From Blastocatellia bacterium (lineage in GTDB: Bacteria > Acidobacteriota > Blastocatellia > UBA7656), in assembly GCA_049273835.1 (NCBI GenBank), contig JBASRM010000547.1, positions 1 to 51,586 on the forward strand: 51,586 bases of DNA, written 5' to 3'. The notes below the pieces were generated by a model. The model saw only the letters and a list, made by a program, of their open reading frames with translations, was not told where the DNA came from and did no database searches. Both the position numbers and the translations under genes were made by a program. The number at the start of each line of letters is the position of its first letter. Positions within the stretch are counted from its first letter, which is position 1. Positions 6,668-37,921 of this stretch are shown here, piece by piece.

Positions 6668-8056
6668 ATGACTGATATTGATACCATCACGAGCCTGGCG
6701 AAGCGGCGAGGCTTCGCCTTTCAGTCCAGTGAGATTTATGGCGGACTTGGTTCAGTGTGGGACTACGGACCCCTGGGTGTGGAACTCAAAAACAATATTA
6801 AGCGGACATGGTGGCGTTCGGTGGTCTACGAACGCGACGATATGGTTGGGCTGGACGCGGGGATTCTCATGAACCGGCGCGTATGGAAGTACTCAGGTCA
6901 CGAAGAAACGTTCTCCGATCCGCTTGTTGATTGCCGCAAGTGCAAAGCCAGGCTGCGCGCCGACAAGGTGGAAGGGGACAAATGCCCCGAATGCGGTTCG
7001 GCTGACCTCACTGAGCCGCGTCAATTCAACCTGATGTTCAGAACTACGGTTGGTCCGGTTGAAGATGACTCAGGCCTCACCTATTTGAGACCCGAGACCG
7101 CCCAGGGGATATTTGTCAATTTCAAGAATGTTCTAGACACTACGAATCGGAAACTGCCTTTCGGTGTCGCACAAATCGGCAAGGCCTTTCGAAATGAAAT
7201 AACTCCCGGCAACTTCATCTTCCGAACCCGCGAGTTCGAGCAGATGGAGATCGAGTATTTTGTAAAGCCTCCTCAGGCCTTGAAGCCGGGGGAGACAAGC
7301 GACGATGAATGGCACGAGCGCTGGATTGAAGCTCGCTACAACTGGCACCTGACCCTGGGAATGCGCGCGGAGAATTTGAGGAAGTACGAACAGCCGAGCG
7401 GCGAGCTGGCGCACTATGCGAAACGCTGTGTAGATCTTCAATATCGGTTCTTCCCGGACCGCGAGGATGGTGAGAAGCAGTGGGATGAGCTCGAAGGAAT
7501 CGCTAACCGCACCGACTTCGACCTCAGGGCGCATTCCAAGAAACCGGTTGACTCCGAAGGCAAGCGGCTCAACCCGGACTCGACGGCCGATCTTACTTAT
7601 TTCGATCACGAAACCAATCAGCACCTCTTTCCTTATGTAATCGAACCCTCAGCCGGCGTCGACCGCAAAGTGCTCGCGTTCATGATGGACGCTTATCGCG
7701 AGGAAGAAGTGCGCGGCGAGAAGCGTGTGGTACTTAAGCTCCATCCTGATCTTGCGCCGATCAAGGTCGCCGTCCTTCCGCTAGCGAAAAACAAAGAGGG
7801 AATCGTCAACCTCGCCAAAGATATCAAGTCACTGCTTCAGCGGACCGGGGCGATGCGCGCAGTCTACGATGACACTGCTGGAATCGGAAAGTTGTACCGG
7901 CGCCAGGACGAGGTTGGAACGCCGTTTTGCGTGACCGTGGATCATCAATCGCTTGAAGACAATCAAGTCACGATTCGTGACCGGGACACAATGTTGCAGG
8001 AGCGCGTTCCAGTTGCAGAACTCGCGCGTCACATCGGCGAAAAGCTCGGGCTATAA
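6668..8056 (+). CDS. glyQS: glycine--tRNA ligase, dimeric GlyQS type
   Basis: N-terminus [43 protein letters not shown] plus class II motifs ([33 protein letters not shown]). Confidence 0.95.
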
Positions 8057-8120
8057 CTGGCTGCTCTTTTTGTCAGCTCCGCCCCTTCCACGTTAGTTTC
8101 CAGAGGATTATCCTACTCAA

Positions 8121-9542
8121 ATGAACGCCGATGTATTGAGCCTGTGTGAAGCTATGCGCGCCGCGGGAGGCCGCGCGATGCTCGTCGGCGGCTGGGTGCG
8201 GGACCGATTGTTGGGAATCGACTCGAAAGACTTCGACATAGAAGTCTATGGTCTCGAACCTCAGCGGCTTCGCGAAGTCCTCGAGCAGATTGGTCAGGTC
8301 AACACGGTCGGTGAGCACTTTTCAGTTTATAAACTTGTCTCGCAAAGCGCTCGATTCATTGGCAGTCAGACCAGTTCATCGACCGACGACGCGGAAAGGA
8401 TTGAGATAGACGTATCTCTTCCGCGGCGCGAGTCCAAATCGGGCCGTGGCCATAGGGGGTTTGTCATCGAAGGCGACCCAGGTATGAGCTTTGAGGACGC
8501 GGCGCGTCGTCGCGACTTTACGATCAATGCAATTCTTTATGACCCGCTATCGGACGAGACCCTCGATCCCTTCGGCGGGAAGAAAGACCTCAGACTTCGT
8601 ATTCTGAGAGCTGTTTCCGCGGATACGTTTATCGAAGACAGCCTTCGTGTTTTGCGGGCGGTTCAGTTGGCGGCCAGGTTTGAGATGACCATTGACCCCG
8701 CAACTAGAGAGCTCTGCCTCACGATTGAACTCTCGGATCTTCCTCGCGAACGAATTTGGGGTGAGATCGAAAAGCTGCTAACCCTTGCCGAGCACCCGTC
8801 GATCGGTTTGCAGGCAGCACTCGAACTCGAAGTCCTCACCAGGCTGTTTCCGGAGATTCACGCGCTGGTTGGCTGGCCGCAGGATGATACTCCGCTTCAC
8901 GAGGACGTCTTCGCCCATACGAAGCGCTCGATGGATGAAGCCGTCAAGCTGGCCGGCGATCTCTCAAAAGCGAAGCGGATCGCTGTCGTGCTTGCCACAT
9001 TATGTCACGAACTTGGCAAGCCGCTTACGAGGTCGCCGGTAGATAGCGTTTCGTCAAAAGATCACGACAAGCGGGTGGTGGAGCTGACGCGGCCGGTCTT
9101 GAACAAGCTCGGGCTTCACAGCATTGGTGGTTACGACGTGCGCTCGCAAGTGCTGGAGCTGGTGAGAGAGCATGGAAAGCCCAACGAGTTTTATCAAAGC
9201 GCTGAAACAACCGATGGCGATTTTCGCAGGCTAGCTCAACGCGTGGATCTGGATCTGGTTTATCGGGTCGCCAAAGCTTGTTCGTTGGGAGCGGGATCAG
9301 ACCCCACCGCCGAAGATTGGTTTATCCGGAGGGCCCGGGCGTTAGGCGTCGATCATGGACCGCTCCCGCCTCTGCTGCAGGGCCGGCACCTGCTCGAGGC
9401 AGGATTCGAACCCGGCCCACAAATGGGACGCGTGCTTCGCCGGGTGTACGAGCTGCAAATGGACGGTGAAGTTACGAATCTGGCAGATGCGTTGGCCGCC
9501 GCAGGGCCTCCGGTTAAGGCGTTCTCGCCTAACGAACCATAA
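8121..9542 (+). CDS. cca: CCA tRNA nucleotidyltransferase-family enzyme (class II nucleotidyltransferase head plus HD domain)
   Basis: LVGGWVRDRLLGIDSKDFDIEV, RRDFTINAILYD, HD-like CHELGK. Carries a Ser-rich insertion (SQSARFIGSQTSSSTDD). CCA-adding versus A-adding specificity cannot be told from sequence. Confidence 0.8.
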   Translation: MNADVLSLCEAMRAAGGRAMLVGGWVRDRLLGIDSKDFDIEVYGLEPQRLREVLEQIGQVNTVGEHFSVYKLVSQSARFIGSQTSSSTDDAERIEIDVSLPRRESKSGRGHRGFVIEGDPGMSFEDAARRRDFTINAILYDPLSDETLDPFGGKKDLRLRILRAVSADTFIEDSLRVLRAVQLAARFEMTIDPATRELCLTIELSDLPRERIWGEIEKLLTLAEHPSIGLQAALELEVLTRLFPEIHALVGWPQDDTPLHEDVFAHTKRSMDEAVKLAGDLSKAKRIAVVLATLCHELGKPLTRSPVDSVSSKDHDKRVVELTRPVLNKLGLHSIGGYDVRSQVLELVREHGKPNEFYQSAETTDGDFRRLAQRVDLDLVYRVAKACSLGAGSDPTAEDWFIRRARALGVDHGPLPPLLQGRHLLEAGFEPGPQMGRVLRRVYELQMDGEVTNLADALAAAGPPVKAFSPNEP

Positions 9543-9552
9543 GAATTTTCCG

Positions 9553-9581
9553 TTGACAGGCAGGCCCTTTGACGATATTCT
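9553..9581 (+). promoter_or_regulatory. candidate sigma70 promoter for feoAB
   Basis: TTGACA (9553-9558), 17-nt spacer, TATTCT (9576-9581). Confidence 0.45.
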
Positions 9582-9589
9582 TGCGTTTG

Positions 9590-9614
9590 GATAAATTGAA
9601 TTTCATTTTCATTT
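9590..9614. promoter_or_regulatory. Fur-box-like AT-rich imperfect palindrome downstream of the feo promoter
   Basis: gataaattgaatttcattttcattt. The core AATTGAATTTCATTT matches its own reverse complement at 12 of 15 positions and has GATAAT-like hexamers. Lies between the -10 element and the feoA start. Confidence 0.35.
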
Positions 9615-9638
9615 AGGTCCGGATCGAAAGAAGGACGT

Positions 9639-9857
9639 ATGAGCCTGTTGGACGCGCTTCATCATAGGTTGTATCGAGTAAAAGAGATTGAAGGCCCGGA
9701 GGCCGAGTGTCGCCGCTTATTGGATCTTGGCATTACGCCGGGGGAAGAACTGGCCATTGTTCAGTCGGTCCCGTTTGGCGATCCAGTGGTTGTGATGGTG
9801 AGAGGGATGCGGCTTGCCCTTCGGCGTCGGGAAGCCGCATGGATAAGGGTTCAGTGA
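9639..9857 (+). CDS. feoA: FeoA-family ferrous iron transport protein
   Basis: 72 aa. LGITPGEELAIVQSVPFGDPVVVMVRGMRLALRRREAAWIRV is the FeoA SH3-like pattern. Sits 6 nt upstream of feoB. Confidence 0.85.
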   Translation: MSLLDALHHRLYRVKEIEGPEAECRRLLDLGITPGEELAIVQSVPFGDPVVVMVRGMRLALRRREAAWIRVQ

Positions 9858-9863
9858 GCAAAC

Positions 9864-11858
9864 ATGCATTCAGTGGAAGTGGCTGCGTCGCCACCGAACA
9901 AGGAAGCCCATCAGGCGCTTCACCCTCCTGAGACAAAACCCAACCTGTCGACGGTCTGTCTGGCGGGCGCACCCAACGCGGGCAAGACCGCGCTGATGAA
10001 CGCGCTCACCGGCGGCAGTTTTCACACCGCAAACTACGCGGGCGTGACCGTGACGCTTTCACGCGGCAAGAGCAAAGCCGAATTTGGGCCGCCGGTGTTG
10101 CTCGTCGATCTGCCCGGAGTGCACAGCACATCGGCGGTTTCGCCGGAAGAGGAACTTTCCTGCCGGGTGATTGAAAACCGTCATCCCTCTGTAACACCTG
10201 ATGCCTTGATCGTGGCCGTCGACGCCACCCAGCTCGAACGACACCTTAAGTTTGCTTCATTCGTTGCGCGACAACAAAAACCGATGGTCATCGCGCTAAC
10301 CATGATGGACCTGCTCCCTCGAACGCAGCAGTCGGTCAACGTGCGAAAGCTCGAACGGGCGCTTGGAATTCCAGTCATCCCGGTTGACGGCCGCACCGGT
10401 TGGGGCGCTGCCGAGCTGATGAGTGTTCTTCAAAAAGCGTTAGCTAAACCGGTAACTCGAAGCGCACTTTCTGAATTGCCGGAGGAGCCGGTGTCTGCAT
10501 ACAAGCTCATCCGCGAACTACTGGAGAACAGCCAGGCCGTCAAAGATTCGAACCGGTTGGTGCTGGCTCGCGATTCATTCACTTCGAAAATCGACCGGAT
10601 CGTATTGCACCGTTTGCTCGGGTTTCCAATCTTTTTTGCGGTTCTCGTGGGACTATTCTCGTCGATCTTTTGGGTTGCACGCCCGTTTATGGATTTGATC
10701 GATTGGAGTTTTTCGCAAACCGGGAAGGGGTTGTTGGCTGTCTTGCCGGAGGGAGCGCTGTCTCACTTTCTTGCTGAAGGCGTCGTCGGTGGCGCCGGCG
10801 CCGTTGCCGTGTTTTTTCCGCAGATAGTAATTCTCTTCTGCTTAATGACGCTGCTGGAAGATTCAGGCTATCTTGCCCGCGGAGCTGCGATCGTCGACAG
10901 GCCGCTTTCATATCTCGGCTTGCACGGGCGATCTTTCGTGCCAATGCTTTCGGGGTTTGCGTGCGCCATTCCGGCGGTGCTCGCCGCGCGAACGATTCCC
11001 TCGCGTCGCGAGCGGCTGCTTACTATTTGGATATTGCCGTTGATGAGTTGCAGCGCAAGGCTGCCCGTGTATGCCCTCCTACTGGGCGCGCTCCTGCCGG
11101 GCGCCGCCTGGAAGGCTGGACTCGCGCTCGGCTTAATTTATGTCTTGAGTCTTTTGATAGGCGCGTTGGTAGCGGGTTTGATTAGCAGGTTGTTCCTGCG
11201 AAAGCACGCAGCTTCGCTGCTGGCGATGGAGATGCCGGTCTATAGAAGACCTCTCTTGAAACCGACGCTCAAAATGACTTGGTCGCGCTCGTCTGGGTAT
11301 CTCAAGCGCGCGGGAACGCCAATCGTGGTGATTTCGGCGTGCTTGTGGTTGTTGTCCAATTTCGGTCTCGGTTCGCATCAACCCGCAGCGGCTCGAGGTG
11401 AGCAATCGCGATTGGTTGCGGTCAGCGATCTGGATCACTCATTTGCTGCGGAGATTGGCCGGACTCTGGAACCCGCTCTGCGTCCAATGGGAGTCGATTG
11501 GCGAGTCGGTGTGGGCTTGATTTCGGCTTTTGCGGCCCGGGAGGTGTTCGTCAGCACCATGGCGATCGTCTTTCACGTAGCCGGCGACGAAGGCTCGCAA
11601 CAACAGGGTACCTTGCTCGATAGTATGCGCACGGCAACCTTTTTAGGATCCTCGCAACGAATCTTCACAACATCTACTATCATCGGTTTGATCGTCTTTT
11701 TCTTCTTCTCGCTGCAGTGCCTGTCGACGGTTGCAGTGGTGCGAAGCGAGACCAATTCCTGGCGTATCGCCGGGTTGCAACTTCTCTTTTATACCGGCAT
11801 CGGTTACGTGCTGTCAGCAACTGTGGTCGGGGGTCTCCGGCTGTTAGGGGTTGATTAG
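9864..11858 (+). CDS. feoB: ferrous iron transporter FeoB (G-domain plus polytopic membrane domain)
   Basis: G1 GAPNAGKTALMNALTG, DLPG, TMMD. Gate-motif-containing membrane domain with many TM helices. Confidence 0.92.
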   Translation: MHSVEVAASPPNKEAHQALHPPETKPNLSTVCLAGAPNAGKTALMNALTGGSFHTANYAGVTVTLSRGKSKAEFGPPVLLVDLPGVHSTSAVSPEEELSCRVIENRHPSVTPDALIVAVDATQLERHLKFASFVARQQKPMVIALTMMDLLPRTQQSVNVRKLERALGIPVIPVDGRTGWGAAELMSVLQKALAKPVTRSALSELPEEPVSAYKLIRELLENSQAVKDSNRLVLARDSFTSKIDRIVLHRLLGFPIFFAVLVGLFSSIFWVARPFMDLIDWSFSQTGKGLLAVLPEGALSHFLAEGVVGGAGAVAVFFPQIVILFCLMTLLEDSGYLARGAAIVDRPLSYLGLHGRSFVPMLSGFACAIPAVLAARTIPSRRERLLTIWILPLMSCSARLPVYALLLGALLPGAAWKAGLALGLIYVLSLLIGALVAGLISRLFLRKHAASLLAMEMPVYRRPLLKPTLKMTWSRSSGYLKRAGTPIVVISACLWLLSNFGLGSHQPAAARGEQSRLVAVSDLDHSFAAEIGRTLEPALRPMGVDWRVGVGLISAFAAREVFVSTMAIVFHVAGDEGSQQQGTLLDSMRTATFLGSSQRIFTTSTIIGLIVFFFFSLQCLSTVAVVRSETNSWRIAGLQLLFYTGIGYVLSATVVGGLRLLGVD

Positions 11859-12127
11859 CATTCATTCACCGCAGCCGGTGCGACGCAGTGCCCTGCTTTG
11901 ACACTCACAGACCTGAGGTCTAAGATAGCCCAAAGAAGGGCTGGGAGGGAGCAGTGCCACTAGCAAGATAGCCAAAAGGTCCGACCTGGGAGCCTCAAGG
12001 ATTACCGGGTTTCGCCCAGCGACAGTTGTTCCTTCAACTTGAGTTCTGGATCGGAGCGCGCGACGGTTGCCGCGCGTAACGTCAAAAAGAGTCGGGCTCC
12101 GAATGCGCCCGACCTCGGGAGGCCACA

Positions 12128-12805
12128 ATGAAAGACCGCATCAAATGGATTCTAGTCGGACTCGGGTTCACGTTCGGACTTCAGGTCATAATCTCCATCA
12201 TGTTCACCGCGATAGCCTACAGCAGCAAGAGCAGCCAGGCGGATGTAGTATCGGACACAGCGGTGGCTGTTGCTTTTGGCGCGACGGTCGGTGCGTTCTT
12301 GATCGGCGGTTTCGTGGTCGGTTGGCTGACCGAAGACCTGCGGCTGGTTGATTCGCTTATCGTGGCCGTCGCAACGCTTGCGCTGACCCTGCTGGTCTAC
12401 ACGGCGCTGCCCTCGGGTAATCAGCCTCAATTCGTCAGCGGATTTCTACTCTCCCATTTGACTCGCGGGCTGGTGTTCAGTGTACTCGGGCTGGCGGCTG
12501 CGGCGATAGGAGCGTACTGGGGTTGGCACTTGAAAGTGCCTCAAGAAGGTGTGGTCGATAGAATCGCGCTGGTAGTCGGGTTGGTCGGAGCAGTGGTCGG
12601 CCCGTTTGTACTGCTGGCTCTTGGGGGCTCGAATAGCCCCGGCGCGCCAAACCTGCCGTGGTATTTTCTGGTGATCGTGATTGTCTTGGTGCTGGTGATC
12701 GTGGGAGTTGGCTTTGTCCTATTTACTCGGGAGTCACATTACGAGGATGAAATATCGATCAGCCCCGAACACCACAAAGATCAAGATCCAGCCACTACAA
12801 ACTGA
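12128..12805 (+). CDS. polytopic membrane protein of unknown function (~6 TM)
   Basis: 225 aa, hydrophobic throughout, acidic/polar tail. GGGAGG SD 7 nt upstream of the ATG. Confidence 0.6.
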   Translation: MKDRIKWILVGLGFTFGLQVIISIMFTAIAYSSKSSQADVVSDTAVAVAFGATVGAFLIGGFVVGWLTEDLRLVDSLIVAVATLALTLLVYTALPSGNQPQFVSGFLLSHLTRGLVFSVLGLAAAAIGAYWGWHLKVPQEGVVDRIALVVGLVGAVVGPFVLLALGGSNSPGAPNLPWYFLVIVIVLVLVIVGVGFVLFTRESHYEDEISISPEHHKDQDPATTN

Positions 12806-12894
12806 CCATCGGGCTCTGTGGCCGGAAGGCTCGCCTTACCGGTGTCGCTAAACTGATTCGACCGCTTAAACGGCTACGTCACTCCGGCCCGCAG

Positions 12895-14853
12895 TTATGC
12901 TCCGTCATCGAGCCGAGGCTCTTTGATTACAGCACGAAGGTCGCGCGCCACCTCTGCGGCATCCTGGTATCGCTCGGCTACATCTTTCCTGAGTGTTCGT
13001 TCGATAATTGCGGCAAGCGCATCCGGCGCGTCCTTGCGATGCCTTTTTATCGGCGAAGGCGCTCGCTTCTTGATTGCTTCAATCGTTTGAAAATAAGTTT
13101 CGCCGTCAAAAGGCAGACGTCCGGTGGTCATCTCGTAGAGCACGACGCCCAGTGAGAAGATGTCGGCCACGTGTGTCACTTCGCCTCGCCCGGTAGCTTG
13201 TTCGGGCGACATATAGCTTACCGTTCCGAGGAGGACTCCTGATTCGGTAAGGCGTGCTTTGCCTGACGCGCGGGACAAAACGGGAAGCGGCTTCGCAAGG
13301 CCAAAGTCTAGTACTTTAACCTTACCTCTCGACGTGATCATAATGTTTGAAGACTTGATGTCTCGATGTACCACCCCGCGTTCATGCGCCTCAGCCAACG
13401 CTTCAGCTGACTGGATGCCGATGTCGAAGATCTCGCGCATTTCAAGCGGGCCGGCGTCAAGTCGCTCGGCGACAGTCTGACCCTCGACGTACTCCATTAC
13501 GATGTAAGGATTTCCGGACGCTTCGCCGATCTCGTGAATGGTGGCGATGTTGGGATGGTTGAGCTGTGAAGCCATTCGCGCTTCTCTCAAGAAGCGCTGC
13601 TTCATCGTCTCATCCTCCAGGTGCTTCGACGCCAATACCTTGATCGCCACCGTGCGTTGAAGCTCGGTATCATAGGATTCGAAGATCTCGCCCATCCCGC
13701 CCGCGCCAAGCGACCGTCGAATCTCGAATCGTCCGATGTGTCCCTCCGGTTCGATCAGCGGAGGCGCGGCCACTTTTTCAGTCTTGCCGTCGTGTACCGC
13801 CATCGCCGCCCGGTCCGTCTCCCGCAACTCGGTTGTAATGATGCGCGGCCGGGAGATCACCGATGAGAACAGCGTCGAAAAAATGCGCGGGCCCCGGTCG
13901 TCCTGGATAAAGTAGCCGGCGCGCTTGAGATCCTCGTAGATGTGCTCATGTTCCTTCTCTACGTGGCCTTGTTCGTTGAACTCCCGAATCGAGTGGCGGG
14001 GTCCCTCACTTAAGTGGTCCCAGATGAATCGAAACTGGCCCTTGGCTTCATCCAGAAACGTCGCTTCCACCTCTTCCCGATCGAGCTTGCTGTCGCTTTC
14101 AGCGAGATGATCAAAGTAAGCCGAACAAGCGATCTGCAAGAAGTAGGGGAAATATCCTGCAATTTCCATTATCCGGCGCCCGTAATTCTCCAGTGGCAGA
14201 CCCGCTTCCGACGACGGAACGACGATGAGCTCGAGAGCCTCCTTTCGCGTGAATGCGCGCAGGAACACGTTGGTAAAAATGTTGAAGAAAGGAGAGTCTG
14301 CGATGAGTTGTGTATGACAAAGTTCCTGCAGGTCGCGCGCCGAGCTCGTCACGTAAGCCACATCGTAATTGTTGGCGATCGATCGAAGAAATGAATAGAA
14401 CTCCAGATCAAATGCCCGGTTGGTGGTGATGGCGTCGAACTCGTCGAATAGGACAATCAGCTTGCGTCCATTGCGGCGAAAGTCTTCCAGCACCCCTCGG
14501 AGCGAGTCAAATGAGGGCTGGAGCTTTGCCAGCGATTTATCCCCGGTTTCCTTTGCGAGCAGCCCAAACAACTCCTTGAAAAACTCGGTGAGGGTCAGCC
14601 GGCGCTTTTGTTGAAGATCAATGAAGGCAAACGTGTAGGTCTCATGTTTGTCCAGGAAGCGTTCGCGAACCTCCGGCTGATTGATGAAGTAAAGCAGCGA
14701 CGATTTGCCGATGCGTCGTTCGCCCACCACTGAGATCGATTGCGGGCGCGACGCTCCAATTCGCGAGAAGATTTTCGACACCTCGCGCGCGCGACCGAAG
14801 AACTGCGCCGGGTCTTTGATTGCTACCCGATTGAGATAGGGATTGCGCGGCAT
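12895..14853 (-). CDS. fusion protein: N-terminal STAND-like P-loop ATPase (ATPase_2/AAA_35-like) plus C-terminal Hanks-type Ser/Thr protein kinase
   Basis: N-terminus NPYLNRVAIKDPAQFFGRAREV, Walker A GERRIGKSSL, Walker B LIVLFDEFD. C-terminus GAGGMGEIF, VAIKVL, HRDIKSSN, DFGLAK, SYMSPEQ. No TM segment seen. Confidence 0.85.
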   Translation of the reverse strand: MPRNPYLNRVAIKDPAQFFGRAREVSKIFSRIGASRPQSISVVGERRIGKSSLLYFINQPEVRERFLDKHETYTFAFIDLQQKRRLTLTEFFKELFGLLAKETGDKSLAKLQPSFDSLRGVLEDFRRNGRKLIVLFDEFDAITTNRAFDLEFYSFLRSIANNYDVAYVTSSARDLQELCHTQLIADSPFFNIFTNVFLRAFTRKEALELIVVPSSEAGLPLENYGRRIMEIAGYFPYFLQIACSAYFDHLAESDSKLDREEVEATFLDEAKGQFRFIWDHLSEGPRHSIREFNEQGHVEKEHEHIYEDLKRAGYFIQDDRGPRIFSTLFSSVISRPRIITTELRETDRAAMAVHDGKTEKVAAPPLIEPEGHIGRFEIRRSLGAGGMGEIFESYDTELQRTVAIKVLASKHLEDETMKQRFLREARMASQLNHPNIATIHEIGEASGNPYIVMEYVEGQTVAERLDAGPLEMREIFDIGIQSAEALAEAHERGVVHRDIKSSNIMITSRGKVKVLDFGLAKPLPVLSRASGKARLTESGVLLGTVSYMSPEQATGRGEVTHVADIFSLGVVLYEMTTGRLPFDGETYFQTIEAIKKRAPSPIKRHRKDAPDALAAIIERTLRKDVAERYQDAAEVARDLRAVIKEPRLDDGA

Positions 14854-14918
14854 TGGTCAGCACCTGTGTAACGCGGACCTCACAAGCAGATTCCGCGGCG
14901 TTGCGAAACGAACTGATT

Positions 14919-17900
14919 CTAAAGCGTGCGCACTTCTTTCACCACCTGCCAGATTGAATGCGAGCGGCGGATCCACAATCGCAGTAAATCGATCTTAAAC
15001 CTGAATCCATCGGTGGTGTCTTTCTCCAACAGCTCGCGGCGGAACATCTCTTCAAGCGTCAGTCTTATGGTGTTCTCCGAAAGGTTGACCGGGTAATCGC
15101 TGGCCCTCACCGCCGAGCGCAATTCACCGGCCGTCGCGTATCCGGTGCCGTCCGCAAGAACTTCTCCCAGTAGTGACAGCACCAGCTTCTCGTCGTCCGA
15201 AAGCGCGTCCCAGGTATAGATCATTTGCGGAAGCGGGTTGTCTACGATTTCCGTGATTACCCGGCCCAAATCGGCGACCGTTACCCAGTTCTGCCGGTGC
15301 TCGTTCAAGTGGTCAACGACGTTTTGACAGATGACCTGCGTGTAAAATGGCTGACCCGCAGTCAACCGGTAGATTACGTCCAACACCCCCCGCCCATACA
15401 CGACTCGGCCCTGTACCGGATCGGTGATCAACCGGACGGTGTCTTTCTCCGACAAGAAGCCGACCTTGCGAAACAGCGATCGTCTCAGCAACTCGCGCCA
15501 GTATTTTCTGTCTCGCTCCTCGAGCCTCCGCGAGCCCGTGAAGATCAACGCAAGTCGTTCCTTGTTATCCATCAGGCCCGCCAAAAAGGTAAACAGTTCA
15601 TGGGAGAGCTTGCCCTCGTCTACTTTACCTTCGAGCAACTCATACTCGTCCATGAGGATGAGCAGCGTCCGATCGCCTAGCGAACGCAACACGTCATCGA
15701 GAAAGTCCAAAAACATCGGGTACGGATTTCGGGCGTCGAATGAAGGTACGGATATGGCCTGCGACTGCGCCAGAGATGATTGCCTTGGTCCGCCGGATGG
15801 CAGGACGCCTACGGCCACCGCGCCGGAAGGGCCGCTCGATTCAAGCTCATGAAGCGCGCGGCTGTTTGCTCGCCCGACGGCTTCGGCGATCAAACGGGAT
15901 ATCCGCGCGAAGAACTCGGAGTCGGACGCAATCACCATCTCTTGAAGATCGACAAACACCGGTATGAAGCGCGCGCCCAATCGTCCGCCCGCCACTTGAT
16001 ACAGAATCGAGCTCTTGCCCACGCGACGCTCACCGCAAAAAACTATCACCACTCCCTGACTTGTCCCCTCCAGTTTCGTGCGCACGTATCGGAAGTCGTC
16101 CTCCCGTCCAAAGAACATCTTTTCCGTGCGGATAGGGTTGCCCACAATGAAGGGGTTCGGTTCGACTGGAACATAGGTTCGGAGTTCCCTGGGAAGGACA
16201 TATTCGCGATCGCCGAGCCGGCGAGCGGCGAAAGCGGCGACCAGCGCCAATCCGATGGCTGCGATTGCCAGCGCGTAGAACCACCAGGTCTTCCAGAACG
16301 GTGAGCCAACTCGCACCGACAGCGTAGCCGCCGGGCCGTTCGCGCCGTACAAATCCCGGTTCAACGCCATAAGCTCGAAAGTGTGCGTTCCTTCGTCCAG
16401 GTCAAGTCGGGACACGTCCCGCTCGGCTCCCTGTTGGACTGGTAAGACTTCCCAACGGCCGCTCTCTGCACCCGAGTTGATGCGATAGAGGTAGCGCGGC
16501 TGACCGCTCATGCTTGCAGCAGAGAAACGGAAAGTAAGCCGGTGGCGGCCAAAGGACACATCATACGATCCCGACTCAGATACGGGCTGAGTGCGGCCAT
16601 CCACTTCAAGCGAGACCTCACCCGGAGGCGAGACGCGGACCGGGATGTGCCGTACCGCGCCCTTGTTGGTTGCTATCCAGATATGATCCTGCAAGTCTTG
16701 CGTTATCAAATTGATGCGGCTACCGGTCAGCGCTTGAGCTTCACCAGAATAGACCGTGGACAGAATATGCCCGCCGAACCTGCAGAATTTCTTGACCTGA
16801 CCCTCATCCGTCCCGGTCCACAGATACCCGTCCCGGTCGACGAACATCGTGCTTGTAGGTTCAACCTCAAACGTCTCAAATGTGGATCCGTCGTATGCCT
16901 GAATTCCTGCTCTGCTGGCTACCAATAATCGGTCATTGAATCGAACCACCCATCGCGTATCATTGTCGGCAAGACCGCGCGCCGCATCGATCAAGCCCGA
17001 TTCACCCGTAGCCAAATCCAGCCTGACTACTCCGCGGGCCGTCGAAAACCACAGGCGCCCATCCGTATCTTCCAAAACGTGTCTTACGTCGTAGCCGGCG
17101 AGCGCGGGCAAATTCTGCAACTGGCCCTCTCGATACACAGATGCGCCCCGCGTCGTCGCAAACACGATGGCCGAGCCGTCAGCGATCGCCCTCACCCACT
17201 GGACGTTATTTGACGCGAGCCCGCTGCCTTCGTTGAACTGAGTGAGAGTTTCTCCTGTCCAACGCAGCGCGCCCTGCTCGGTGGCAAACCACGCAGAGCC
17301 GGTTCGATCGACCGCAACCGCCTGGACGCTGATCCCGGCGCGGAACCCTTCGACTGGAACAAAGCGCTCGCCTTCGAGCCGCGACACGCCGCCTGGAGTC
17401 AAAAACCACAAACCACTCTGCCCGCGCGTGCCTGGTGTAAGCGCGATCGCGTGTACGTCGTTGTCGGCAAGACCGCGGCTGGTTGTGAAATTCACGAAGC
17501 TGTAGAGATCCGAACTGATCGCCCCGTTGTCGCTTGCAAACCAGAGGTGGCCTTCGCGGCCGGTGAAGATAGCGCTGATGCGATCGCGCTCCAGGAAGTT
17601 GACACGCTGAGACTCGCGCCGCAGTGCGTCGTAGATGACCACTCCCCCCGAGTCGAGGGCAAACCACATTCGGCTGCCCTGGTCCTGACCTATCGTGCGA
17701 ACTATCGCGTCAACAGAGCTGCCGGGGGTGAGTTGGGTTCCCACACTCACCCTGCGAACGCTGCCGCCGTCGATTAACATCAGGCCCCGCGCTGTCGCAA
17801 GCCATACCTTTCCCGTACCGTCCACAAATACCGCGCGAGCATCGATCACCGGTTCCCGGCGTTGTGCTGGGTTCTTAGTCTCCTGCGACTCAAGCCATTG

Positions 17901-19100
17901 TTCGAGAGATCTCAATCGATCGCCTTCAAAAACGGATACACAGCCTGCGGCCGCGATCCAGATGCGTCCAATCTGATCCTGGGCGACGGCTCTTACGTCA
18001 GTTAGCGGAACCTCCTCAGGGCTTGATACAGGGATCATCGTTTGGCCGTCGAACCGAAACAACCCGGCCGCGGCGGCAACCCAAACGACCCCGGTTGAAT
18101 CAACAAAGACCTGTCGAGGGTCGTCCACCTGAAGCGGGGCGGCGGCTTCACCACCTCGCTTGGTGATTCGCCTCAGGGTCTTGGCAGTCGCGAGCCACAT
18201 GGTCCCGAGTCGATCTTCGGCGATCGATCGAATATCTTCGCCGGCTAATTGCTCGAACGCGGATCCTGTTGCTCCTGACGACTTAAACTCTGATCCGTTG
18301 AATCGCGCGACACCCTTGTCGGTGCCAAACCACAGCCAGCCCTCGCTGTCCTGGAACGCTGCCTGAACATTCTTTGAGGGAAGGTTCGGTACGGTGTAAC
18401 GCGAAACCGACTTTTCATTGATTGGAATTACGGGAGCGACCAAAAGCTGAAGCGGGAACTCGGTGGTGATTCCGGCGGAAATGAAGACATCGTTACGGTA
18501 TTCGTCGTAGCCTCGAAGCGTTGCGCCGAGCTGATAAGACCCGGGCGCTAGCCTGCCAAAGTATGCGTCGCCGTAGGCATCAGTGCCGCTGCGAGCTGCA
18601 ACCGCGCCGACCGCGGCTCGATCCTTCGCATAGAGGCTGACTGTCACGCCGGAAAGCGGCTGGTTAGCAGCATCCAACACGGCGACGTGCAGCGACGACG
18701 GGGCAAGCTTGATCGGCGGGGCGGCAAAGGTTTCATCCGGCCGCAGCGTTATGTTCACAACCTCTTTCTTGAATCGCGCGGCTTCAACTGTGATGCGATA
18801 CGGCGCGGCCCTAAGGTTGCGAAACTCGAATCTGCCGTCCGCCTGGGTGCTGGTGGACCGTGACAGATCTCCCGAACCGAGAGTTACCCTGGCGTTTGCC
18901 AAAGGCACGCCGCGATCGTCTTGAATGACCCCGATTATGGCGCCCGCTTCGTTTTGAGCACTGCTATGCCGTGCGCTGAGGACTCTTGAGCCACCCACCA
19001 GGAGAATGATTGCGATGAATAGAACGAACGAGCTGCGCCTTCCGACGGTGCGCCCAGAGAATTGGTTGGTTGGGAAGCGCGTAGACACTTCTAAAAACAT
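14919..19100 (-). CDS. transmembrane sensor: 2x CarboxypepD_reg-like, double Reg_prop beta-propeller, Y_Y_Y-like domain, TM helix, cytoplasmic STAND-like P-loop ATPase with helical/wHTH-like tail
   Basis: About 14 blades of the type FQDSEGWLWFGTDKGVARF / VAQDQIGRIWIAAAGCVSVF / VLEDTDGRLWFSTARGVVRL. PRYLYRINSGAESGRWEVL (Y_Y_Y-like). TM WWFYALAIAAIGLALVAAFAA (about 16218-16286). NPFIVGNPIRTEKMFFGRED, Walker A GERRVGKSSI (about 16008-16037), Walker B LLILMDEYE. Confidence 0.85.
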   Translation of the reverse strand: MFLEVSTRFPTNQFSGRTVGRRSSFVLFIAIILLVGGSRVLSARHSSAQNEAGAIIGVIQDDRGVPLANARVTLGSGDLSRSTSTQADGRFEFRNLRAAPYRITVEAARFKKEVVNITLRPDETFAAPPIKLAPSSLHVAVLDAANQPLSGVTVSLYAKDRAAVGAVAARSGTDAYGDAYFGRLAPGSYQLGATLRGYDEYRNDVFISAGITTEFPLQLLVAPVIPINEKSVSRYTVPNLPSKNVQAAFQDSEGWLWFGTDKGVARFNGSEFKSSGATGSAFEQLAGEDIRSIAEDRLGTMWLATAKTLRRITKRGGEAAAPLQVDDPRQVFVDSTGVVWVAAAAGLFRFDGQTMIPVSSPEEVPLTDVRAVAQDQIGRIWIAAAGCVSVFEGDRLRSLEQWLESQETKNPAQRREPVIDARAVFVDGTGKVWLATARGLMLIDGGSVRRVSVGTQLTPGSSVDAIVRTIGQDQGSRMWFALDSGGVVIYDALRRESQRVNFLERDRISAIFTGREGHLWFASDNGAISSDLYSFVNFTTSRGLADNDVHAIALTPGTRGQSGLWFLTPGGVSRLEGERFVPVEGFRAGISVQAVAVDRTGSAWFATEQGALRWTGETLTQFNEGSGLASNNVQWVRAIADGSAIVFATTRGASVYREGQLQNLPALAGYDVRHVLEDTDGRLWFSTARGVVRLDLATGESGLIDAARGLADNDTRWVVRFNDRLLVASRAGIQAYDGSTFETFEVEPTSTMFVDRDGYLWTGTDEGQVKKFCRFGGHILSTVYSGEAQALTGSRINLITQDLQDHIWIATNKGAVRHIPVRVSPPGEVSLEVDGRTQPVSESGSYDVSFGRHRLTFRFSAASMSGQPRYLYRINSGAESGRWEVLPVQQGAERDVSRLDLDEGTHTFELMALNRDLYGANGPAATLSVRVGSPFWKTWWFYALAIAAIGLALVAAFAARRLGDREYVLPRELRTYVPVEPNPFIVGNPIRTEKMFFGREDDFRYVRTKLEGTSQGVVIVFCGERRVGKSSILYQVAGGRLGARFIPVFVDLQEMVIASDSEFFARISRLIAEAVGRANSRALHELESSGPSGAVAVGVLPSGGPRQSSLAQSQAISVPSFDARNPYPMFLDFLDDVLRSLGDRTLLILMDEYELLEGKVDEGKLSHELFTFLAGLMDNKERLALIFTGSRRLEERDRKYWRELLRRSLFRKVGFLSEKDTVRLITDPVQGRVVYGRGVLDVIYRLTAGQPFYTQVICQNVVDHLNEHRQNWVTVADLGRVITEIVDNPLPQMIYTWDALSDDEKLVLSLLGEVLADGTGYATAGELRSAVRASDYPVNLSENTIRLTLEEMFRRELLEKDTTDGFRFKIDLLRLWIRRSHSIWQVVKEVRTL

Positions 19101-19251
19101 TTAATGAGGAAGCCGGGCTACTCGCAAGGTCGAGTATACACGCGGTAGAAGAAGGCTGCCAAGAAACGAGAGTTGCAACCCGACGCCCGGTAGAGAGAAT
19201 GGGTTTTACCAGAGTTCGATGAATGCGAAGCTGAGTGCCTCTAACTCTTGC

Positions 19252-20223
19252 TTACTGACCGGCCTCGAAAATCCTGCGAGGGTTATCCACGAGCATTGTC
19301 TTGATTTGTTCGTCTGTGACCCCGCGGTTCTTCAATGCCGGAATCACGTCGTTGTGTATGTGCAAATAATTCCAGTTCGGCAGCACTGCCGGCAACGCGG
19401 CTTCCGGCAGCCAATCGTTAAAGCAAGCGGCATCGTGAGAGAGCACCATCTTTTCCGCATAGCCACGCTCGCACATCCTTGCGACTGTGTTTACGCGATC
19501 CTCGAACGGGAGTAAGACGTCTATGCCGAAGCGGTCCATACCTATGTAAGAGCCATTTGCGATCAGCTTCTCAAGGTAACCTAGATCGGTCGTATCGCCC
19601 GAGTGGCCGATGATTACTCGCGACAGGTCCACACCTTCTTCCTGAAAAATGCGCTGCTGATCGAGTCCTCGCTCAGTGTGCGCGTGGGTGTGTGTCGAGA
19701 TTGGGACGCCGGTGCGGCGATGCGCCTGAGCGACCGCGCGAAGCACACGCTCGACTCCTGGAGTCACACCCGGTTGGTCAGTTGCGCACTTCAGAATGGC
19801 AGCTTTGACGCCGGTGCCAGCGATGCCTTCCTGGATGTCCCTAACGAACATTTCGACCATCATCTCCGGCCCGCCAAGCTCAGTGCCCGGCCCCTGGAAG
19901 TGAAAGTACATCGGCACGTCGTTGTAGGTATAGACGCCGGTAGCCACAACGATGTTGAGCCGAGTCTTCGAAGCAATCTTTTGTATTCGGGGAATGTATC
20001 GCCCAAGCCCGATGACTGTCAGGTCAACTATCGAATCGGCCCCGCGGCTCTTAAGTTCATTTAAACGTTCGATTGCATCGCCGATTCGCCGCTCTTCGTC
20101 TCCCCACGGTTCGGGGAAGTTCTGCATGATCTCTGTTGAAAGGACAAAGACATGCTCATGCATCAGCGTTACGCCCAACTGACCGCAATCAATCGAACCT
20201 CGAACCGTATTAACCGATGCCAT
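19252..20223 (-). CDS. phosphotriesterase-family amidohydrolase (phosphotriesterase-like lactonase type)
   Basis: GVTLMHEHVF (His-x-His), AILKCA (candidate carbamylated Lys), STHTHAHT, IIGHSGD, LSHDAA. Start set at the ATG at 20223, which has a GGAGAA SD. Confidence 0.85.
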   Translation of the reverse strand: MASVNTVRGSIDCGQLGVTLMHEHVFVLSTEIMQNFPEPWGDEERRIGDAIERLNELKSRGADSIVDLTVIGLGRYIPRIQKIASKTRLNIVVATGVYTYNDVPMYFHFQGPGTELGGPEMMVEMFVRDIQEGIAGTGVKAAILKCATDQPGVTPGVERVLRAVAQAHRRTGVPISTHTHAHTERGLDQQRIFQEEGVDLSRVIIGHSGDTTDLGYLEKLIANGSYIGMDRFGIDVLLPFEDRVNTVARMCERGYAEKMVLSHDAACFNDWLPEAALPAVLPNWNYLHIHNDVIPALKNRGVTDEQIKTMLVDNPRRIFEAGQ

Positions 20224-20424
20224 GTGTTCTCCAAATCCCAGCGGATGGTTGCCGCGCTCGCCAACCAAACGAGTAGAGGGCACTGACGAACTCCGGGAGT
20301 GAGTGCCCTGCGGAGCCCAAATACTAATACGCGGTCATAGACGCGGCAAGCAAACCTCCCGGCGGCGGATGAAAATGATCGCGATCGGCCAAAAAGGCCG
20401 ACGTGGTCAACGTCACAGCGTTGA

Positions 20425-20453
20425 TTGACCTCGGCGCAGCTAGGTGCGATATT
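20425..20453 (+). promoter_or_regulatory. candidate sigma70 promoter for the metallophosphoesterase gene
   Basis: TTGACC (20425-20430), 17-nt spacer, GATATT (20448-20453), about 40 nt upstream of the ATG at 20494. Confidence 0.4.
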
Positions 20454-20493
20454 TGTCGCCTCAACCAACCTGGCCCGCGAGGGAGGAAAGCTC

Positions 20494-22953
20494 ATGCCGA
20501 CTGCCACGGGATCACAGCCGCCTGATTTATATCCGAAACCTGATCGCGAACGAGACTTCAAAGGGCCGGTGAGGTGGCTCCTGGGACCGCAGCTCATAGC
20601 CAGCCTCAAGTGGCTCGCCCTGTACACGGCCTTCAAAGGCAAGCTCGATCCGCGAGACTGGATGCGTGCGCGGCCGATTCACCTGGACGGGCCGGACAGA
20701 TCAAACAATGCGGAGGACGTCTCGGCTGATGAGTACTGGTTTGATTACTTCGCCGATACCGGCGATGGGCAGTTGGCGACATACAGCATTGCGTATCTGT
20801 GTTTGAGGAATCTTTGGGTCGCAACGGACCCTCGCGTCGATTCGCCGATCGACATGGGCAAAACATCAGACTCCGGAATGAAGCTCCCGCGTGGGGAATT
20901 CCTGTTCGTAGGAGGTGACACAGCTTACCATCAGGCCGATTACCCGACGCTGGGGCTGCGGTTTCAGGCGCCGTTCAAATGGGCTTACGAAGATCTCAGG
21001 AAAGAGGCGGCAATCTCGGATGACGAGCCACGGAGACCCTTGTTTGGCATTCCCGGAAATCATGACTACTACGATTTGATTGACGGCTTCGGCCGCCAGT
21101 TCGCGGAGCCTACCAGCGAGGAGGGGCAGAAGAACCGAGAGGGGCTGCGGCCGCAGTTGTCAATTCCTGGCTTCAAGCGTAGTCAAACGGCAAGCTATCT
21201 GGCACTCAAGCTCCCGTTCGATTGGTGGCTCTGGGGACTCGACAATGAGGCTGGCAGACTGGACATACGTCAGCAGGAGTTTTTCAAAGGGCTCAGTTCC
21301 AAGAAACCCGACAAACTCATCGTCGCCACGCCGGAGCCAGGCACAGTCTTCGGCCGTTGTGCTCGCTCGGGTGATAAAGTTTCGAAGGCATTCGCGGATC
21401 TGAATCTCGAACAGCCTTTCTTATTGGATCTGAAACTGCCTCCTGGAACCTGCAGACTGGATCTGTCCGGCGACGCGCATCTCTACGCGCGCTATTGGGG
21501 ACCTTCGGCAGCGAGTCCCGGTGAGGAGCCCGCCGCGGACAATTACGCTTCCGTCGTGTCGGGTCTCGGCGGCGCGTTCCTCCACTCGTCGGATACCGAT
21601 GTGGGCGAGATCAAAGCGCAAACACGCTATCCACCACGGGAGGTCTCGCGAGTCGAAACCGCTCGCAGGTTGTTCAGCCCGGTAAATATCATCTCGGGAG
21701 GATACGTGGCGATATTCGGCGCTGTCGCCGCGGCTATTGTCTTTTTTGGCGCAACCGTTCCGGTGAGCAGCAGCGTGGTCGTTGAGAAAGCATTCGCAGC
21801 GTTGAATCTGACTCTTCCGCCCCTTTCGAGGCCATCGGGGCTTTTCCCCGACATCACCTGGCCCCAGCACAACCTTGCTCAAGCGGCTAACTTTTCAATG
21901 CTCGAGATTGCCCTGCGAGTGGTCTTGCTCATCGGGTCTGTAATACTTGTGGCCGTCAGCGTTCAGCAATCAAAGTCGATGATAAACTCCTCTCGAAAGG
22001 GCGAAGACGTATTTCGGCGCTATCGTATTCGGATCGCGATTCTGCTTACTGCCGGTTTGGCGTGTCTGGTGTTTGGCGTCTGGCGGCTGGTTGAGTACCG
22101 AGACAACCTGTCACCCTTTCAATGCAGCCTTCTCATTCTGTTTGCGCTGCTCTGGAGCGCGAACGCCTTAGCGGCGAGCGTCGTCTATTCGGAATGGCTT
22201 TTCAAACGCGCTTATACCGAGATCATCAAGTGGTGGCACTATTGGCCGGTTATGTTACTCGTCGTTCTCGGGGCTGCGTTTCCAGTCCTCGGCTTCGGCT
22301 TCTTCGGGAGGTATCCGGCGGAGTACGTGTTCGTCGATGTTCTGTTTGCATTGGTGGTTTTGGGCGGTGCAGCCGCTTTGATTATTGGAGCATTCGTTGC
22401 CGGGGGCGCACATCAGGGACCCGCCGGAAAAGCGGGCTTCTTTCTGCTCGGAGTATGGCACGCATTGTTGCAGGTAGCGGTTCCCTTCCTGATGGCGAGA
22501 TACGGTGACTGGCGCTCGTGGCTTGGGGGACTCGCCGCAGTCTTAGTTTTTTGGCTCGCGGGGAACTGGCTGGTAGCCAAGCTCAGATTCAGACAGAGTC
22601 TTTTGATAGTCTGGCTGCTCTATGGTGTGGTTTTAATTGGACTGCCCTTGTATCTACGAGGAGCATCAGCCCCGTCCTCTGAATCCTGGATCGCGCGGAT
22701 GTTGGTCGCGGTTCTGCTTGGGGCGCTGATGAGTTGTGTAACGCTTGGCTGGTATTTTGCGGTCTCGCTTGCGTTCAACGGGCACAACGAACAAGCAGGC
22801 GGCGCCGCGCGAATAGAACGCTTCAAGGAGTTCATGCGAATTCGCCTTACGGCTAGCGGTCTCACTGCCTACGTGATAGGAATCGACAAACCCGAGATGA
22901 ACGGAAAGAACCTGCGCCCCAGAATCATCGATGTGTTTGATCTGAAGGTTTGA
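20494..22953 (+). CDS. calcineurin-like metallophosphoesterase fused to a large polytopic membrane domain
   Basis: Motifs FADTGDG, FVGGDTAYHQADY, GIPGNHDYYD, LSGDAHLYARY. The C-terminal ~430 aa has about 10 hydrophobic helices. ATG at 20494 is preceded by a GGAGG SD (the track start at 20425 is TTG). Confidence 0.8.
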   Translation: MPTATGSQPPDLYPKPDRERDFKGPVRWLLGPQLIASLKWLALYTAFKGKLDPRDWMRARPIHLDGPDRSNNAEDVSADEYWFDYFADTGDGQLATYSIAYLCLRNLWVATDPRVDSPIDMGKTSDSGMKLPRGEFLFVGGDTAYHQADYPTLGLRFQAPFKWAYEDLRKEAAISDDEPRRPLFGIPGNHDYYDLIDGFGRQFAEPTSEEGQKNREGLRPQLSIPGFKRSQTASYLALKLPFDWWLWGLDNEAGRLDIRQQEFFKGLSSKKPDKLIVATPEPGTVFGRCARSGDKVSKAFADLNLEQPFLLDLKLPPGTCRLDLSGDAHLYARYWGPSAASPGEEPAADNYASVVSGLGGAFLHSSDTDVGEIKAQTRYPPREVSRVETARRLFSPVNIISGGYVAIFGAVAAAIVFFGATVPVSSSVVVEKAFAALNLTLPPLSRPSGLFPDITWPQHNLAQAANFSMLEIALRVVLLIGSVILVAVSVQQSKSMINSSRKGEDVFRRYRIRIAILLTAGLACLVFGVWRLVEYRDNLSPFQCSLLILFALLWSANALAASVVYSEWLFKRAYTEIIKWWHYWPVMLLVVLGAAFPVLGFGFFGRYPAEYVFVDVLFALVVLGGAAALIIGAFVAGGAHQGPAGKAGFFLLGVWHALLQVAVPFLMARYGDWRSWLGGLAAVLVFWLAGNWLVAKLRFRQSLLIVWLLYGVVLIGLPLYLRGASAPSSESWIARMLVAVLLGALMSCVTLGWYFAVSLAFNGHNEQAGGAARIERFKEFMRIRLTASGLTAYVIGIDKPEMNGKNLRPRIIDVFDLKV

Positions 22954-36318: not shown

Positions 36319-36367
36319 GTTGATAACTCTTCCAAACCCGGAGACTCGCAATCCATCTTAGCCGTCT

Positions 36368-37843: not shown

Positions 37844-37921
37844 GTCTCAAGCGTTGGGCAGGCTTGAATAGTAGCATAGACGCCAGCGCAAGTCTGGTTA
37901 TTCCCGGACGCATGCTGAAGC

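Follow-up and report, generated by a model that had tools for sequence, protein, structure and literature searches.

What is the task of two adjacent genes, one coding for a membrane receptor that ends in a switch-type ATPase, the other for a related ATPase that carries a protein kinase? The question is raised by a 51,586-nucleotide stretch of Blastocatellia bacterium contig JBASRM010000547.1 (the window, in what follows), in which two minus-strand open reading frames, termed gene 1 and gene 2, lie 65 nt apart. The two-gene module is real, conserved and widespread. The two genes are rather likely to constitute one transmembrane signalling unit, with nucleotide-dependent hetero-assembly of both ATPases serving to activate the kinase. 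Strand, coordinates and separation of the reading frames are as the initial annotation of the window had given them, according to the list of open reading frames and the translations:

14919..19100, minus strand: gene 1, single-pass membrane receptor with cytoplasmic ORC/STAND-like ATPase, 1393 amino acids (open reading frame, translation, Pfam, homologues)
14854..14918, minus strand: spacer between gene 1 and gene 2, 65 nt (AGGTG 9 nt ahead of the gene 2 ATG)
12895..14853, minus strand: gene 2, soluble nSTAND2 ATPase fused to a Ser/Thr kinase, 652 amino acids (open reading frame, translation, Pfam)

Central to the proposed unit is the kinship of the two ATPase modules, which occupy the C-terminal end of the first protein and the N-terminal half of the second:

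14922..16157, minus strand: ATPase module of gene 1, residues 982-1393 (AlphaFold, Foldseek, invariant motifs)
13834..14853, minus strand: ATPase module of gene 2, residues 1-340 (PF20702, family alignment invariants, homology to the gene 1 module)

Compared directly by BLASTP, the modules are 25% identical over 339 columns (E 1e-16), and alignment of the two family profiles by hhalign gives a probability of 99.4% and E 8.8e-22 over 330 columns. As judged from these alignments, the modules are homologous, far beyond chance. Common to both are an NP(Y/F) leader before FFGR, the P-loop GERRxGKS, Walker B of the form DE(Y/F)(E/D) and a lid motif AG..P..Q..C. The initial annotation had called the modules paralogous and had quoted a series of motif pairs; the kinship is borne out, also at the profile level where unrelated regions would have come apart, and each of the quoted motifs is found in the sequences. 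Further support for a direct cooperation of the two module types comes from a soluble protein of 751 amino acids (P0291) that unites an nSTAND2-type module (residues 6-299) and a gene-1-type module (374-751), with intact Walker motifs in both.

Within gene 1, the module begins with an NPF...FFGRE leader, continues with the P-loop domain and a helical lid bearing the AGQPFYTQVICQ motif, and ends in a winged helix. Walker A (GERRVGKS, residues 1023-1030) and Walker B (DEYE, 1151-1154) are invariant in the alignment of 70 homologues, and the AlphaFold model built with these homologues (pLDDT 90.5, pTM 0.85) displays an alpha/beta P-loop domain, the lid and, at the C-terminus, the winged helix. 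The best Foldseek matches are ORC/Cdc6 and the archaeal structures 2FNA and 2QEN (E ~1e-10, identity 10-16%), followed at lower rank by the plant NLRs NRC3 and wheat resistosome. A sequence search of the PDB returned a marginal match to 2FNA as the nearest entry and no solved structure closer than that. Residues 996-1222 match Pfam ATPase_2 weakly, at 22.9-26.5 bits and under the 33.2-bit cut-off, and Pfam nSTAND2 (PF20702) is unmatched even at E up to 1; kinship with the gene 2 family is visible only to BLASTP and to the alignment of profiles. A Ser/Gly/Pro-rich segment modelled with low confidence (window 15726-15836, minus strand; residues ~1089-1125) interrupts the nucleotide-binding domain; none of the 13 homologues with which it was aligned has it, and it could be a phosphorylation or linker segment.

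STAND proteins, in the definition reportedly due to Leipe et al. 2004, have a P-loop domain with Walker A and B, then a helical domain with a GxP-type motif and a winged helix. They are also said to carry sensor and effector on the chain of the NTPase and to undergo ligand-driven nucleotide exchange and oligomerisation. The domain sequence of P-loop with Walker A/B, helical domain and winged helix is present here, by AlphaFold model, fold matches and motifs. The conserved AGQP (gene 1) and AGYFP (gene 2) in the lid helix region are candidates, by eye, for the counterpart of the GxP motif. Sensor and effector, as annotated by Pfam, are split over the two chains, gene 1 having a sensor without effector and gene 2 an effector without sensor.

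The remainder of gene 1 consists, from the N-terminus to the membrane, of these parts:

18969..19049, minus strand: N-terminal hydrophobic helix, signal peptide or signal anchor, residues 18-44 (Kyte-Doolittle window mean 2.29)
18441..18944, minus strand: two CarboxypepD_reg (transthyretin/Ig-like) sandwiches, residues ~53-220 (Pfam PF13620, E 1.2e-24, two stretches)
16641..18407, minus strand: double beta-propeller of 14 Reg_prop-type blades, residues ~232-820 (Pfam Reg_prop E 9e-31, blade motifs, Foldseek)
16305..16628, minus strand: Y_Y_Y-like Ig domain adjoining the membrane, residues ~825-932 (structural match to hybrid two-component ectodomains)
16212..16289, minus strand: transmembrane helix, residues 938-963, followed by the cytoplasmic RRLGDRE (hydropathy 2.35; AlphaFold helix 939-959)

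Two CarboxypepD_reg domains, some 14 propeller blades and a single transmembrane helix had been claimed for this protein, and Pfam, the motif count (14 blades, 12 recognised by regular expression and 2 by eye) and the hydropathy profile agree with that. The signal anchor that had also been claimed may instead be a cleaved signal peptide. The AlphaFold model of residues 1-960 (pLDDT 84) has beta strands throughout residues 53-218, and its top Foldseek matches are the periplasmic sensors BT4663, BT3049 and BT4673, aligned over ~790 columns with E 1e-31 to 1e-28. It is because of this structural match that the label Y_Y_Y-like, likewise part of the original claim, is retained; Pfam assigns Y_Y_Y to the homologues P0030 and P0037 and not to gene 1. 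Given the resemblance of the modelled ectodomain to Bacteroides hybrid two-component sensors, gene 1 looks like a glycan-type sensor in which a switch-type ATPase serves as cytoplasmic output instead of a histidine kinase.

Gene 2 is built differently around its ATPase and places a catalytic domain at the C-terminus:

12910..13725, minus strand: Hanks-type Ser/Thr kinase domain, residues 377-648 (Pfam Pkinase E 6e-49, residues 377-630; motifs)

The ATPase comprises an NPYLNRV...FFGR leader, Walker A (GERRIGKS, residues 44-51), Walker B (DEFD, 137-140), the AGYFPYFLQIACS lid motif and a short winged helix, with Walker A and B invariant across the alignment of its family. Residues 34-285 score 216 bits against Pfam nSTAND2 (PF20702), above the gathering cut-off of 24 bits. 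The kinase has the full set of catalytic motifs (GAGGMG, VAIK, HRDIK, DFG, SPE). An ATPase followed by a complete Hanks kinase without membrane helix was the predicted make-up, in agreement with Pfam and motif scan; the hydropathy scan shows no transmembrane or other hydrophobic helix, and neither Pfam nor hydropathy reveals a sensor domain belonging to the protein itself.

The adjacency of the two genes is conserved. Scanning with the gene 1 ATPase alignment against GTDB representatives (one genome per species) yielded 259 relatives, and the 79 top loci among them were retained. Among the 64 of these that extend at least 2.5 kb downstream and hence are informative, 52 are followed on the same strand by a homologue of gene 2, a proportion that overstates the independent support because many of the loci are orthologous Blastocatellia with shared downstream synteny (orf225, a small gene next to feoB, in 34 loci, FeoB in 25). 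Gaps in the paired loci are mostly 6-150 nt. An independent scan of metagenome contigs, seeded from a PEGA-type subfamily, shows an nSTAND2-type gene on the same strand in 27 of 31 informative loci; the partner is kinase-then-ATPase in 17, ATPase-then-kinase in 5 and without kinase in 5. Over the homologous pairs, the spacing is 1-150 nt, or else there is an overlap of 4-14 nt. The pair also occurs in assemblies labelled Calditrichaceae, Glassbacteria and Gemmatimonadales, and the sole locus labelled Eisenbacteria is unpaired. Loci L089-L091 have the pair in other genomic contexts, with spacings of 1 nt and 26 nt, and in L004 the pair, overlapping by 14 nt, has another outside domain that is unannotated. 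The PEGA-type receptor of L005 has the ATPase first and the outside domain after the transmembrane helix; its partner, overlapping by 4 nt, is kinase-then-ATPase. Conservation of the genes as neighbours, on which the original proposal depended, therefore holds across phyla, contexts and sensor types. Several contigs that by gene content and sequence are clearly Blastocatellia-like (L007, L009, L023, L032, L040 and others, L066, L078) bear titles of the type 'uncultured Clostridia bacterium', 'Actinomycetota' or 'archaeon', and these metagenome-assembled genomes are probably mislabelled or mis-binned.

Both ends of the module appear exchangeable while its ATPase core is retained. A profile search with the gene 1 ATPase over 1.84 billion representative proteins (clusters at 50% identity) finds 10,320 relatives at E <=1e-3 and 2,748 clusters at E <=1e-30, and this large receptor family extends over little-studied lineages of soil and sediment, namely Acidobacteriota, Calditrichaeota, Gemmatimonadales, Glassbacteria, KSB1 and Poribacteria. 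A Pfam census of 46 diverse representatives lists Reg_prop in 10, PEGA in 8, CarboxypepD_reg in 8, Y_Y_Y in 5, and periplasmic binding protein/ANF_receptor, FGE-sulfatase, PD40 and HAMP in 2 each, in addition to TPR and Kelch; the homologues P0057 and P0058 have a dCache-family domain (PF14827). The ATPase is found at either protein end and the outside domain on the N- or C-terminal side of the transmembrane helix, with a HAMP linker in some. On the partner side, the output is a Ser/Thr kinase at either terminus, a PP2C (SpoIIE) phosphatase (L152) or a class III nucleotide cyclase (P0237, L163); three partners (L086, L165, L166) are devoid of any output domain. No nuclease, HEPN, pore-forming, NADase, TIR or other toxin-type effector was seen among the partner proteins surveyed. 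Taken at the level of annotated domains, the repertoire of inputs and outputs is that of signal-transduction proteins. Locus L086 (1280-7104) arranges a PEGA membrane protein (809 amino acids), a TPR protein and two adjacent nSTAND2 genes (363 and 389 amino acids), with enzyme output absent.

Rates of change differ along the module. Mean identity to the window proteins, calculated for the paired loci, is 75% for the receptor ATPase, 79% for the partner ATPase, 76% for the kinase and 53% for the outside sensor; the gene 2 ATPase is 78-91% identical, compared with 67-82% for FeoB in the same loci. Cytoplasmic machinery conserved like a housekeeping transporter, together with a drifting sensor, fits a conserved relay with adaptable input, and such a pattern is at odds with the rapid diversification usual for immune sensors. 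Among 72,556 plasmids, the gene 2 module has no match and the gene 1 module only 4 weak ones, and a plasmid or mobile origin is rejected on that basis. An Acinetobacter ursingii plasmid (NZ_MH220285.1, 199686-200933) encodes a protein distantly related to the gene 1 ATPase, 26.5% identical over 96% of the query, under the annotation 'N-6 DNA methylase'; a metagenome homologue (P0011) is named 'type I restriction enzyme M protein'.

With anatomy, ATPase homology, intact nucleotide motifs, conserved adjacency, sensor and output swaps and the fusion protein as the observed points of departure, we infer a physical hetero-assembly, the direction of the signal, activation of the kinase by proximity, the kind of ligand and the presence of substrates. 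The periplasmic double propeller and the Y_Y_Y domain would bind an extracellular ligand, plausibly a glycan. The single transmembrane helix would pass the resulting change on to the receptor ATPase, thus altering its nucleotide or oligomer state at the membrane. Assembly of the receptor ATPase with its paralogue from gene 2, in a nucleotide-dependent manner, would then bring kinase domains together, with trans-autophosphorylation and phosphorylation of cytoplasmic targets as the consequence, and hydrolysis of ATP would reset the complex. The idea of a relay, already put forward in the initial annotation, came through the three refuting conditions stated there and derives further support from the partner outputs being of the signalling type.

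A number of observations weigh against this proposal. Contact between the two ATPases is a prediction, and the P0291 fusion comes from a single 3.3-kb metagenome contig. The 52 paired loci consist mostly of orthologues from one class, the Blastocatellia, with shared synteny. In about 1 in 5 loci (~19%) no partner lies within 6 kb of the receptor, which implies that the receptor is able to exist apart from the kinase gene; an alternative adjacent partner is rejected for them, the neighbours being unrelated (TonB receptor, pseudouridine synthase, permease, SAM synthetase, sigma-54 regulator). In some Blastocatellia, 0.7-3.3 kb of genes are inserted between the homologues of gene 1 and gene 2, so tight co-transcription is not obligatory. 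It was in work on biological conflict systems that the nSTAND families were defined, and one relative (P0384, 1214 amino acids, no transmembrane helix) combines Pkinase, FHA and TIR_2 with a gene-1-type ATPase, showing that this ATPase can also occur in conflict-like architectures.

The last two points are what an anti-phage or conflict system would lead one to expect, that is, a variant of the paired-STAND (nSTAND2) arrangement whose membrane protein detects phage or envelope damage and whose kinase effector shuts the cell down, a role already proposed for defence genes based on kinases. The PADLOC kinase models PD-T4-6, mad6 and MkoA give good scores with the gene 2 kinase domain, yet these matches are confined to the generic kinase domain (residues 373-647) and gene 1 has none. 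Restriction-modification and BrnT/BrnA cassettes between the two genes in several genomes, as well as the methylase annotation of the distant Acinetobacter plasmid relative, can be added in favour of a conflict function. They are opposed by the housekeeping neighbours, class-wide synteny of proteins conserved as FeoB rather than fast-evolving, outside domains of the nutrient or environment-sensor type (HAMP and periplasmic binding proteins included), alternative outputs that are PP2C and nucleotide cyclase and not nucleases, HEPN, TIR or pore formers, and a near absence from plasmids. On balance, a conflict function is considered unlikely.

Might adjacency just be the history of a duplication? 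The two proteins would in that case be independent tandem paralogues forming separate homo-oligomers, gene 1 for example a membrane-tethered regulator acting through its winged helix and gene 2 a PknK-like protein. Each has a complete ATPase and winged-helix module, ORC/Cdc6 winged helices bind DNA (family knowledge), cassettes between the genes are tolerated and the unpaired receptors exist. Such independence is difficult to reconcile with an adjacency, same-strand order and short or overlapping spacing that persist across phyla, and with a pairing that outlasts changes of sensor type, receptor topology, partner domain order and genomic location; moreover, gene 2 is without a sensor domain of its own and a fusion of both modules exists. 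We hold it to be improbable. More doubtful still is a reverse or feedback wiring, in which the kinase acts on the receptor, perhaps on the Ser-rich insert, and the true output is the gene 1 ATPase, its winged helix or a membrane scaffold. The insert offers a conceivable target, and partners devoid of output domain mean that the ATPase pair alone must do something. However, absence of the insert from the aligned homologues prevents it from being part of a conserved logic, and the variety of partner enzymes is what is expected of an output module. The relay from receptor to output-bearing partner is the best supported of these interpretations.

At the locus itself, expression of the relay as a unit is plausible. 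The 65-nt gap was scanned for promoter-like and terminator-like sites on the same strand, and none was seen; ahead of gene 1, a candidate promoter is found, the top-scoring minus-strand site of the consensus scan within 12000-20500:

19133..19162, minus strand: candidate promoter TTGGCA-18-TATACT, 10/12 consensus matches (consensus scan; ends 33 nt 5' of the gene 1 ATG)

Co-transcription of gene 1 and gene 2 may thus be envisaged from sequence. In several Blastocatellia genomes the spacer would seem to be a preferred site of insertion. The cassettes noted there (L017, L019, L023 and L044, ~7240-10240; L029, L034 and L074, ~7290-8220; L021 and L067; L053 and L054) are of several kinds. One pairs an EcoRV-like endonuclease with a D12 N6-adenine methyltransferase, in some cases accompanied by an IS200-type transposase; the rest are a BrnT/BrnA toxin-antitoxin pair, a 110-amino-acid unknown open reading frame and ~3 kb of miscellaneous genes.

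Relatives place the window in Blastocatellia (Acidobacteriota). Its DNA is of an ordinary chromosomal kind and no defence island, and the neighbours of the gene pair are housekeeping genes. It codes for a class II aminoacyl-tRNA synthetase, a CCA-adding enzyme or poly(A) polymerase, FeoB, a phosphotriesterase-family protein, a short-chain dehydrogenase, a ClpX-like ATPase, RecG, peptidases and a cluster with an exo-N-acetylmuramidase (NamZ) fusion. In that cluster (33751-38935, minus strand), which looks like cell-wall sugar recycling, a beta-lactamase-fold protein fused to NamZ adjoins a sodium:solute symporter and a BadF/BcrA-type ATPase. The space separating feoB from the 3' end of gene 2 is taken up by orf225 (12128-12805, plus strand), coding for a 225-amino-acid protein with ~6 hydrophobic helices, no family match and no NCBIfam model. 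Membership of orf225 in the module is rejected: it travels with FeoB in Blastocatellia and is missing where the pair sits elsewhere, and it probably belongs with FeoB. Two large open reading frames are without assignment, one of 842 amino acids (20425-22953, plus strand) matched by neither Pfam nor NCBIfam, the other of 742 amino acids (46326-48554, minus strand) with no Pfam match at E up to 1e-5.

How, then, does the module relate to systems already described? The PADLOC-DB 2.0 hidden Markov models give no match for gene 1 and just the generic kinase domain for gene 2, NCBIfam has no model for either ATPase, and a description of the receptor-ATPase and ATPase-kinase pair was not found in the open-access literature. 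A 2026 Nature survey of STAND NTPases is concerned with defence clades only and leaves this architecture unmentioned. The search for an already characterised system behind the pair, taking in the solved structures as well, has accordingly matched none. The initial claim of a module without counterpart among named systems is tenable for characterised systems and for the pair as such, which appears undescribed, but needs correction in two respects: the gene 2 ATPase belongs to a named Pfam family, nSTAND2, and a predicted paired-STAND operon has been published.

This precedent is the two-gene nSTAND2 'counter-invader' operon predicted by Kaur, Iyer, Burroughs and Aravind (eLife 2021; PMC8195603, Fig. 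6C and source data), mostly proteobacterial and described as mobile, in which one partner has eroded nucleotide motifs and a HEPN or GT4 domain. Likeness to it lies in two adjacent genes, each with an MNS-like STAND NTPase and a winged helix, for which a hetero-multimer was predicted there. The differences are several. GERRxGKS and DE(Y/F)(E/D) are intact in both families here and eroded in one partner there; the effector here is a Hanks kinase on an active ATPase (PP2C or nucleotide cyclase in relatives); one partner here is a transmembrane receptor, whereas a membrane receptor is absent from their operon; and the locus here is chromosomal and syntenic with housekeeping neighbours, as opposed to mobile. 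Identity of Pfam nSTAND2 with the inactive nSTAND2 of Kaur et al. is rejected, for the sequence concerned (WP_094198012.1) matches no Pfam family, PF20702 included. The link to their alignment is a single active member, RMG61681.1 from Calditrichaeota, clearly a protein of the gene 2 kind. A related operon from Calditrichaeota is entered in one row of their supplementary table and left undiscussed in the main text, and locus L072 (Calditrichaceae) has a gene-1-type receptor upstream of an arrangement like the one in that row. Since the component superfamilies are known and the paired-STAND idea has computational precedent, the module is not categorically new; its transmembrane wiring and signalling-type outputs appear undescribed.

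Bacterial signalling across the membrane is commonly classed under a handful of schemes: two-component systems, chemoreceptors, anti-sigma/ECF pairs, receptor Ser/Thr kinases, membrane-bound cyclases and c-di-GMP enzymes. In the present module, classical outside sensors are joined to an ORC/STAND-like ATPase, the gene of which nearly always adjoins that of a paralogue with a signalling enzyme. The nearest relation in the outside part is to the Bacteroides hybrid two-component sensors BT4663, BT3049 and BT4673, which share the periplasmic double Reg_prop propeller and Y_Y_Y domain followed by one transmembrane helix. Their cytoplasmic continuation is histidine kinase, receiver and AraC on one chain, in contrast to the ATPase of gene 1, and the Pfam scan of genes 1 and 2 detects no HisKA, HATPase_c, receiver or DNA-binding domain of the hybrid two-component type. 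Receptor Hanks kinases (PknB/PASTA, PknD with its beta-propeller) likewise combine an extracytoplasmic sensor and a cytoplasmic Ser/Thr kinase with complete motifs. Those, however, are single polypeptides activated by dimerisation, whereas two ATPases intervene here, distributed over two chains of which the kinase chain has no transmembrane helix.

PknK of Mycobacterium tuberculosis and the classical regulators MalT and AfsR are soluble STAND proteins with sensor repeats on the same chain. With them the module has in common a Hanks kinase or other output on a switch-type NTPase thought to oligomerise in a nucleotide-dependent way; unlike them, it has its sensor outside the cell, on a second and membrane-anchored paralogue, and its NTPase is of the nSTAND2/ATPase_2 type. 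No MalT-type match is listed in the Pfam scan of the two genes. The closest solved folds combining ATPase, lid and winged helix are those of the archaeal MNS/ATPase_2 proteins SSO1545 (PDB 2FNA) and PAB2304 (PDB 2QEN) and of ORC/Cdc6, which at 12-16% identity differ in having no membrane anchor, sensor or kinase partner.

Were the relay to prove true, a new input route into bacterial Ser/Thr phosphorylation and cyclic-nucleotide signalling would be recognised, STAND-type switches would be seen to serve routine sensing across the membrane, and a simple bacterial model would become available for the activation of one NLR-like ATPase by another. Transmembrane wiring and outputs are experimentally tractable. 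We would advance tentatively, as an extension that may or may not prove right, that the pairs represent a widespread and unrecognised class of transmembrane signalling, in which a receptor ending in a switch-type ATPase, in place of a histidine kinase, assembles in a nucleotide-dependent way with a paralogue bearing the output (Ser/Thr kinase, PP2C phosphatase or nucleotide cyclase) and which serves ordinary environmental sensing, not immunity. The analogy extends to paired and helper NLRs (sensor NLR with NRC helper; NAIP with NLRC4), where a sensor NTPase activates an output-bearing paralogue. It is one of logic only, in that the NLRs are cytosolic immune receptors with LRR sensors and no close sequence relationship to the module. 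By that analogy, the proposed class would be the membrane-spanning, two-chain counterpart of sensor/helper NLR pairs.

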